DNA from: Escherichia coli
GTDB lineage: Bacteria > Pseudomonadota > Gammaproteobacteria > Enterobacterales > Enterobacteriaceae
Assembly: GCF_003334815.1 (NCBI RefSeq)
Contig: NZ_QOWO01000089.1
DNA length: 2,037 nt
Direction: 5' to 3' (one strand)
This document shows, piece by piece, positions 1,306 through 2,037 of this stretch; position 1 is the first letter of the stretch; every line of letters begins with the position of its first letter. The position numbers and the translations under genes were made by a program. Under the pieces are notes generated by a model. It had not been told where the DNA came from. It saw only the letters and a program-made list of their open reading frames with translations, and ran no database searches.

Positions 1306-1689
1306 ATGTCAAATACATACCAGAAAAGAAAGGCAAGTAAAGAGTATGGTTTATATAATAAATGTAAGAAACTAAATGATGATGAATTATTTCGCTTACT
1401 TGATGATCGCAATTCCTTGAAAAGGATTTCATCTGCCAGAGTATTACAGTTAAGAGGGGGGCAAGACGCTGTTAGATTGGCAATTGAATTCTGCACTGAC
1501 AAAAATTATATCCGTAGAGATATCGGAGCATTTATACTCGGGCAAATATAAATTTGCAAAAAATGCGAAGATAATGTTTTTAATATTTTGAACAATATGG
1601 CATTGAATGATAAGAGTGCTTGCGTTCGAGCTACGGCAATCGAGTCAACGGCCAGGGAAAGATCATCAAAAGTTCACTTTTTGCACTAA
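1306..1689 (+). pseudogene. yibA: YibA-like HEAT-repeat protein gene (Rhs-associated orphan immunity-type gene), disrupted: in-frame TAA at 1549-1551 and 3' truncated
   Basis: Translation from 1306 (MSNTYQKRKASKEYGLYNKCKKLNDDELFRLLDDRNSLKRISSARVLQLRGGQDAVRLAIEFCTDKNYIRRDIGAFILGQI*) closely matches my recollection of the N-terminus of E. coli YibA, encoded next to rhsA. The same frame stays open after the TAA for 45 more codons (ICKKCEDNVFNILNNMALNDKSACVRATAIESTARERSSKVHFLH, stop at 1687-1689), indicating a recent nonsense mutation. Full-length YibA is about 280 aa, so the gene is also truncated. Confidence 0.6.
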
Positions 1690-1770
1690 ATAATTCGCAT
1701 TTTATGTTTAAAAATTGAGATATTCCTTATTACCTGAAGCTGTTTTTTATTGCTTATACATGATCAAATA

Positions 1771-1790
1771 CTCCTTACCTAATTAAGGAG
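1771..1790 (+). promoter_or_regulatory. Hairpin sequestering the transposase ribosome-binding site (stem ctcctta / taaggag, 6-nt loop); SD AAGGAG at 1785-1790
   Basis: ctcctta (1771-1777) is the exact reverse complement of taaggag (1784-1790), with loop cctaat (1778-1783). The 3' arm contains the SD located 6 nt upstream of the ATG at 1797. Such structures commonly limit transposase translation from read-through transcripts in IS elements. Confidence 0.5.
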
Positions 1791-1796
1791 AACAAA

Positions 1797-2037
1797 ATGG
1801 AACTTAAAAAATTGATGGAACATATTTCTATTATCCCCGATTACAGACAAACCTGGAAAGTGGAACATAAATTATCGGATATTCTACTGTTGACTATTTG
1901 TGCCGTTATTTCTGGTGCAGAAGGTTGGGAAGATATAGAGGATTTTGGGGAAACACATCTCGATTTTTTGAAGCAATATGGTGATTTTGAAAATGGTATT
2001 CCTGTTCACGATACCATTGCCAGAGTTGTATCCTGTA
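1797..2037 (+). CDS. ISAs1-family transposase (H-repeat-associated protein), N-terminal 80 codons; 3' partial, continues beyond window
   Basis: Not in the supplied ORF track because it has no stop inside the window. ATG at 1797 with strong SD; translation [80 protein letters not shown] matches my recollection of the N-terminus of E. coli H-rpt proteins (YhhI/YdcC/YbfD type, ISAs1 family), which classically accompany rhs loci. Confidence 0.85.

Follow-up and report, generated by a model that had tools for sequence, protein, structure and literature searches.

The window, by which we mean the whole 2,037-nucleotide stretch of E. coli DNA that was analysed, ends inside the insertion sequence (IS) ISEc1, whose transposase start is preceded by a hairpin that pairs the Shine-Dalgarno (SD) sequence. 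As judged from leader comparisons, this ribosome-binding site (RBS) hairpin is a conserved, covarying feature of the ISAs1 family and not an accident of the copy in the window. Its role, as suggested by folding, by conservation across the family and by a predicted promoter, is most likely to block translation of read-through transcripts. The reading as a whole is one that we hold to be probable: the window would carry the left end of ISEc1, an IS-adjacent deletion followed by a nonsense mutation would account for the damaged gene next to it, and the hairpin would hide the RBS in foreign transcripts only.

Locus and identity of the element

The window matched thousands of complete E. coli genomes over its full length with 99.8–99.9% identity, the best matches being at 99.9%, and had 4 differences from one K-12 genome over its 2037 positions. 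It contains the 3′ end (tip) of rhsB, yhhH, a yibA-like HEAT-repeat pseudogene (yrhC) and ISEc1 (H-rptB, yhhI). The gene order, rhsB-yhhH-yrhC-yhhI-yhhJ, is the same as at the K-12 rhsB locus. The window corresponds to positions 4001–6037 of the K-12 record (L001), where yhhI occupies 5797–6933 and is followed by the convergent yhhJ; in MG1655 the yhhI ATG is at 3,624,378 and the pseudogene is named yrhC. Compared with ISEc1/H-rptB (yhhI, b3484) of K-12, this is the same locus, with nothing of substance different.

ISEc1 bounds the RhsB element on its distal side and is the ordinary, known ISEc1/H-rptB. The tie of ISEc1/H-rpt to Rhs loci is long established, and the first-pass annotation was fair in describing the element itself as expected rather than novel. 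Rhs biology is left unchanged, since both the element and its Rhs link are already textbook material. The association of H-rpt with Rhs loci is described in PMC3032704. In strain EC93 (L002/L006), the rhsB-type toxin tip, yhhH and an intact yibA were found at the rhsA locus, beside yibH and mtlA, and not between nikR and yhhJ; from strain to strain, the tip/immunity/yibA module thus sits at different Rhs loci.

The left end of the element was placed by alignment to ISEc1 copies and to yibA. Independent ISEc1 copies (ydcC, ybfD and other loci) start matching the window at 1649–1654. Intact yibA genes cease matching at 1655–1658 in the database search, and alignment puts the break between 1652 and 1653. 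With homology to ISEc1 copies running from 1653 and yibA homology ending at 1652, the element begins at 1653 (CAGGG...; its sequence starts CAGGGAAAGATC) and not at 1650, as had been proposed earlier. The window therefore holds the left 385 bp of ISEc1/H-rptB (1653–2037, plus strand), and the full element, which continues past the window, is 1291 bp long, with ends at 5653 and 6943 in the K-12 record. Its left terminal inverted repeat, CAGGGAAAGATCATCAAAAGTT (1653–1674, plus strand), includes a GATC at 1661–1664. Comparison of the left repeat CAGGGAAAGATCATC with the right end read as its reverse complement (CAGGGCAAGATTACG...) gave matches at 11/13 and 14/22 positions. A CAGGG terminus is common to ISAs1 family members.

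The ATG at 1797 opens an 80-codon frame (1797–2037, plus strand) and coincides with the annotated yhhI start (5797 in the K-12 record). This bears out the transposase gene that the first-pass annotation had postulated at this position outside the list of open reading frames, from which it was absent because the frame runs off the window. According to annotation, profile and Pfam matches, these are the first 80 codons of yhhI, which is an intact gene for a 378-aa DDE transposase of an ISAs1-family insertion sequence. Full-length YhhI scored 412.4 bits against the curated ISAs1 family model NF033564, far above the cut-off of 70, and the 80 residues encoded in the window scored 65.5 bits by themselves, covering model positions 1–51. 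The protein contains the domains DDE_Tnp_1_assoc (PF13808, 1.9e-33) and DDE_Tnp_1 (PF01609, 1.7e-29), and its acidic residues D109, D172 and E306 are invariant across 13 family members. RefSeq annotates the gene as 'ISAs1-like element ISEc1 family transposase yhhI'.

Profile score, domains and annotation all agree with the ISAs1-family (H-rpt) identity assigned at first pass. The rest of the transposase and the right inverted repeat, which had been named as the features to look for downstream, are both present in the K-12 record. ISEc1 (1291 bp) has the terminal repeats starting with CAGGG, the length of ~1.2–1.35 kb and the single ORF of the family, and among the sequence criteria of ISAs1 membership the target duplication is the only one missing. 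The element is present as several copies per genome. Transposition of H-rpt has not been observed (PMC3032704).

Origin of the yibA junction

The yibA-like HEAT-repeat pseudogene fragment, yrhC (1306–1652, plus strand), comprises nucleotides 1–347 of 843 and carries an AAA to TAA nonsense mutation at 1549–1551. It represents the N-terminus of NCBIfam PRK09687 and is annotated 'internal stop; missing C-terminus'. Relative to the intact 843-nt yibA of EC93, 8 substitutions were found, including the A to T change at 1549 that makes TAA. The yibA-like gene had been thought to be truncated by the element, and it is indeed cut after nucleotide 347, exactly at the IS end.

In the downstream sequence, the right inverted repeat anticipated there is present, but the target-site duplication is not. 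The window's ISEc1 copy has AGTCAACGGC as its left flank and AATACAGGAC as its right flank, with no 10-bp target duplication. In this it is unlike many of its ISAs1 relatives in other genomes, which very often have perfect 10-bp direct repeats around their CAGGG termini. Such repeats flank the relatives L013, L021, L022, L025, L029, L032, L036, L040–L042, L048, L056, L063, L074 and L079, as well as L090, L091, L094–L097 and L099, so that the ISAs1 target duplication is consistently 10 bp in this sample. Its lack in the window is attributable to a rearrangement at the left end and reflects the history of this copy, not the type of element.

The right flank of ISEc1 in the K-12 record is the yhhJ intergenic region and not yibA. 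An informative arrangement was found in strain GTEN_23 (L101, 8942–12100), with the order nikR-Rhs...-intact yibA-orphan rhs-sel1-IS630 remnant-ISEc1-yhhJ. The ISEc1 of GTEN_23 carries a 713-bp internal deletion, and its right junction, CCCTG followed by AATACCGGACTGAG..., is the same as in K-12; the form shared by the two is CCCTG followed by AATAC(C/A)GGACTGAG. Since the duplication and the 3′ part of yibA are both absent and the right junction is shared with a strain that has an intact yibA, the yibA junction is not a simple insertion. On these sequence comparisons it is best read as an IS-adjacent deletion, most likely one in which an ISEc1 copy already beside yhhJ would have removed the sequence that separated its left end from yibA. 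A target duplication is seen in neither GTEN_23 nor K-12, which counts against the adjacent deletion.

The same end product, with no duplication and a shared right junction, would result if ISEc1 had inserted simply into yibA with a 10-bp duplication and had then recombined with the ISEc1 copy at the edge of yhhJ, deleting the DNA between them. The presence of several ISEc1 copies per genome is in keeping with this route. It requires two events instead of one, however, and its reciprocal-junction intermediate (the right end of the IS, the AGTCAACGGC duplication and the 3′ part of yibA) was found in 0 of 5,426 complete E. coli genomes. We regard insertion followed by recombination as rather unlikely and retain the adjacent deletion as the preferred reading of the junction.

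The question raised at first pass, whether the nonsense mutation or the IS truncation came first, was answered in favour of truncation. A query with the junction and with AAA in place of TAA matched six genomes at 100% identity, and AS19, the one of the six that was checked, has the order rhsB-yhhH-truncated HEAT gene-yhhI-yhhJ. The genome search gave no exact match to an intact yibA carrying TAA. Six junctions without TAA, together with no intact yibA with it, indicate that truncation preceded the nonsense mutation; by this comparison of genomes, the IS junction is older than the AAA to TAA change. Gene conversion from an rhsA-linked yibA could in principle be the source of AAA in the six genomes. 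For the history of the locus, these results fix the left end of the element at 1653 and point to a yibA truncation of the deletion type that occurred before the nonsense mutation.

The leader hairpin and its conservation

From sequence and folding, the 5′ arm of the hairpin is the anti-SD CTCCTTA (1771–1777, plus strand) and the 3′ arm is TAAGGAG (1784–1790, plus strand), which holds the SD AAGGAG (1785–1790) 6 nt before the ATG. The loop is CCTAAT (1778–1783). The perfect 7-bp stem with a buried SD had been reported at exactly these coordinates by the first-pass annotation.

In folding calculations, AAGGAG had a mean P(unpaired) of 0.004 whichever 5′ end between 1291 and 1771 was tried, as against ~0.5 in RNAs beginning at 1774–1780. 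Opening of positions 1783–1800 required 8.6–10.2 kcal/mol for the upstream 5′ ends (1291–1771) versus 2.0–2.5 kcal/mol for those at 1774–1780. The SD is thus predicted to be >99% paired in any RNA starting upstream of the stem. Instability in the mRNA context, which had been named as the outcome that would speak against the stem, was not seen, the stem being stable in every context tried. By folding, the SD pairing characteristic of IS10/IS50-type read-through protection was found in transcripts entering from outside.

A hairpin this stable over the SD was uncommon compared with shuffled leaders (p ~0.01), and the 91-nt fold taken whole was unremarkable (z = −0.5). Perfect 7-bp hairpins in the AT-rich 2-kb window numbered 2, versus 1.4 expected, so that finding one somewhere in it is unsurprising. 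The other perfect 7-bp inverted repeat (ATTTATA/TATAAAT, 1530–1536/1547–1553) is AT-only and was completed by the T1549 nonsense substitution. Rfam yielded no family matching 1600–2037 at E ≤ 1.

Each of the three frames meets a stop codon in the segment separating the IS end from the hairpin (1687–1763, plus strand), the yibA frame stopping at 1687, so that incoming ribosomes would not unwind the stem. The terminator scan gave no terminator-like site on the plus strand in 1200–2037. Since no such site separates yhhH from the IS, transcripts of the rhsB operon could plausibly read through.

Conservation of the hairpin was assessed in a leader set from 12 ISAs1 elements on plasmids and 80 loci in one-genome-per-species contigs. 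Start codons were assigned by homology, and the leaders were reduced to 61 non-redundant ones (<85% mutual identity). A hairpin was counted if it was perfect, had at least 5 bp, a loop of 3–12 nt and a 3′ arm overlapping −14..+2, and reached −6 kcal/mol or better. A hairpin occluding the SD or the start codon was found in 30/61 leaders versus 4.2% of shuffles, and 33/61 leaders were individually significant (p ≤ 0.05), statistics that overstate independence because the leaders are phylogenetically related. The complementary arms vary by element: CTCCC/GGGAG, CTCTC/GAGAG, CTTCC/GGAAG, GCCTTT/AAAGGC, CTGCTT/AAGCAG, CTGTC/GACAG and ACCTCCA/TGGAGGT were found, and further pairs among relatives are ACTGGCTTT/GGAGCCAGT, CTTCCACT/GGTGGAGG and GCATCCTGAG/CTCAGGATGC. 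Loop length ranges from 4 to 12 nt across the family, and the stems of some relatives contain G-U pairs, in the sense orientation only.

Covariation was evaluated by an alignment-free exchange of stem halves. In 27 leaders, cognate halves folded at a mean of −7.1 kcal/mol and halves from different leaders at −3.4 kcal/mol (permutation p ≤ 1e-4), with a slight bias because the split point was taken from the cognate fold. This test was used in place of a covariance model built from a MAFFT alignment, which gave 55% paired positions, no better than shuffles, since the variable loop and arm lengths had put the alignment out of register.

A palindrome at this position might instead act as DNA, being a site for the transposase or a host protein, or might be an inverted repeat that arose by chance or a terminator on the minus strand. 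It is a perfect palindrome at the DNA level, it was flagged on the minus strand by the terminator scan, and perfect 7-bp hairpins do arise by chance in the window. However, a loop of 4 to 12 nt and arms that change with compensation across the family argue against these readings, as do the wobble G-U pairs, which are A-C mismatches on the other strand, and the position of the hairpin, always over the SD or the start codon. All three are highly improbable, and a hairpin acting in the mRNA remains the preferred reading. As to the minus-strand terminator, it was rejected on account of its tail TATTTGATCA, a poor T-run that is not conserved as one, and of the sense-strand G-U pairs.

Altered leaders were observed in two further genomes. 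In ETEC1734 (L103), the ISEc1 leader is interrupted at about window position 1788, in the SD arm of the hairpin, by an IS5-like ISKpn26 that itself carries a nested IS1 and parts the leader from yhhI. In Escherichia albertii (L020, 190–310), a 94%-identical ISEc1 relative has lost its CAGGG end and has TAATC in place of GATC. Both its anti-SD (CCCTATT) and its SD (TAAGTAA) are degraded, and its ORF has an early 1-nt deletion; the copy is decaying, with all of its leader features degrading together.

Predicted promoter, Dam sites and relation to known elements

An extended −10-like motif, TGATCAAAT (TG-n-TCAAAT; 1761–1769, plus strand), with a GATC at 1762–1765, lies directly upstream of the hairpin and is a putative part of the transposase promoter, a proposal drawn from comparative conservation only. 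TGATCnnAT occurs at −50..−15 in 29/61 non-redundant leaders and is invariant in alignment A3. A TTGAC-like −35 stands exactly 17 bp upstream of TG-n-TCnnAT in 27/28 related leaders, and the mean −35 score was 4.6/6 at spacer 17 versus ≤2.4 at every other spacer. The only one of the 28 without a TTGAC-like −35 is ISEc1 itself, which has CTGTTT (window 1741–1760). Given this lack, the own promoter of ISEc1 may be very weak or lie elsewhere, and the missing −35 could be one reason for the immobility reported for H-rpt. The −10-like hexamer is atypical, with a C at the normally critical −11 position, and a generic sigma-70 scan gave no plus-strand promoter in the ISEc1 leader.

The 5′ arm of the hairpin begins 0–2 nt after the −10-like hexamer, so that a start 7 nt downstream of the hexamer would lie within the loop or where the arm ends. 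In ISEc1, TG-n-TCAAAT at 1761–1769 predicts a +1 at ~1776, which would set the anti-SD arm between −10 and +1, directly after TGATCAAAT. Transcripts from outside, including read-through from the co-oriented rhsB-yhhH operon, would contain both arms, fold and hide the RBS, with the upstream three-frame stops keeping incoming ribosomes from melting the stem. Transcripts from ISEc1's own promoter would start at ~1776–1778, lack the anti-SD and stay translatable.

If own transcripts started upstream of 1771, they would fold too, and the hairpin would be a constitutive attenuator that keeps the transposase very low with no discrimination between native and foreign transcripts. Such a role is compatible with the stability of the stem in every longer RNA, with the lack of a recognisable −35 for TGATCAAAT in ISEc1 and of any plus-strand sigma-70-like site in its leader by the promoter scan, and with the failure to observe H-rpt transposition (PMC3032704). 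In 27/28 relatives, however, a near-consensus −35 (17 bp) and TG-n-TCnnAT predict that transcription begins where the arm ends or the loop starts, and there would be no reason to conserve this geometry of promoter and arm if all transcripts were meant to fold. We consider constitutive attenuation improbable and prefer a hairpin that would silence foreign transcripts selectively.

The two GATC sites of ISEc1 lie in the left repeat and inside the −10-like motif, and the right repeat has GATT. Leaders with TGATCnnAT came in 28/29 cases from hosts of the Enterobacterales, Vibrionales, Aeromonadales and Alteromonadales or from unclassified gamma MAGs. GATC is present in the left repeat of ~20 relatives with ends found (within L010–L063), nearly all from the same four orders. 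Among the relatives with ends found, GATC is absent from every right repeat, where GAGC, GATT or CCGC stands instead. In ISAs1 elements of other phyla, the repeats at the two ends are nearly the same and lack GATC.

Together, the four orders make up the Dam/SeqA/MutH clade. Dam regulation of IS10, IS50 and IS903 acts through GATC sites, located in the promoter and in one terminus. Judged by sequence alone, ISEc1 has both marks of a Dam-regulated IS, a GATC over the putative −10 and a GATC in one terminal repeat. The left-only GATC pattern could stem from the shared ancestry of the elements. Tentatively, and with more doubt than confidence, we propose that the left end of ISAs1 elements of Dam-positive gammaproteobacteria may be a three-part module: a Dam site in the −10, an anti-SD in the discriminator and a Dam site in the left repeat only. 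If true, the module would couple both transposase production and the activity of the left end to replication-fork passage and would insulate the element from host transcription.

The element is ordinary, and the family-wide regulatory feature of its leader is modestly new. In the searchable literature, which excludes older subscription papers (the original H-rpt descriptions), no description of an ISAs1-family leader module (RBS hairpin, Dam/GATC) was found. The hairpin is conserved in a widespread, little-studied IS family, and mutations of the stem and of the GATC sites offer a cheap handle on the apparent immobility of H-rpt/ISEc1 and on ISAs1 regulation.

Within the family, ISAs12, ISKpn31, ISAeme2, ISPa60 and unnamed relatives share the CAGGG termini, the length of ~1.2–1.3 kb, the single DDE ORF and the SD leader hairpin. 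ISEc1 is unlike other ISAs1 elements in its leader of 144 nt, compared with ~70–100 nt, and in having lost the TTGAC −35.

Outside the family, IS10 and IS50 are reportedly protected from outside activation through fold-back inhibition of read-through transcripts (Davis, Simons & Kleckner 1985; Krebs & Reznikoff 1986; review, Mahillon & Chandler 1998). The ISEc1 transposase belongs to the ISAs1 family, unrelated to the IS4 family of IS10/IS50. In contrast to IS10/IS50, ISEc1 has a stem that is short-range and compact, with the discriminator region of the predicted promoter serving as its 5′ arm, and no antisense RNA is evident. In IS10/IS50, and by prediction in ISEc1, the RBS pairs with a segment upstream of the native start and only externally initiated transcripts fold. 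In both, a GATC lies over the −10 region, putative in ISEc1, with another in one terminal repeat. By this analogy, the ISEc1 hairpin probably follows the layout by which IS10/IS50 guard against outside activation.
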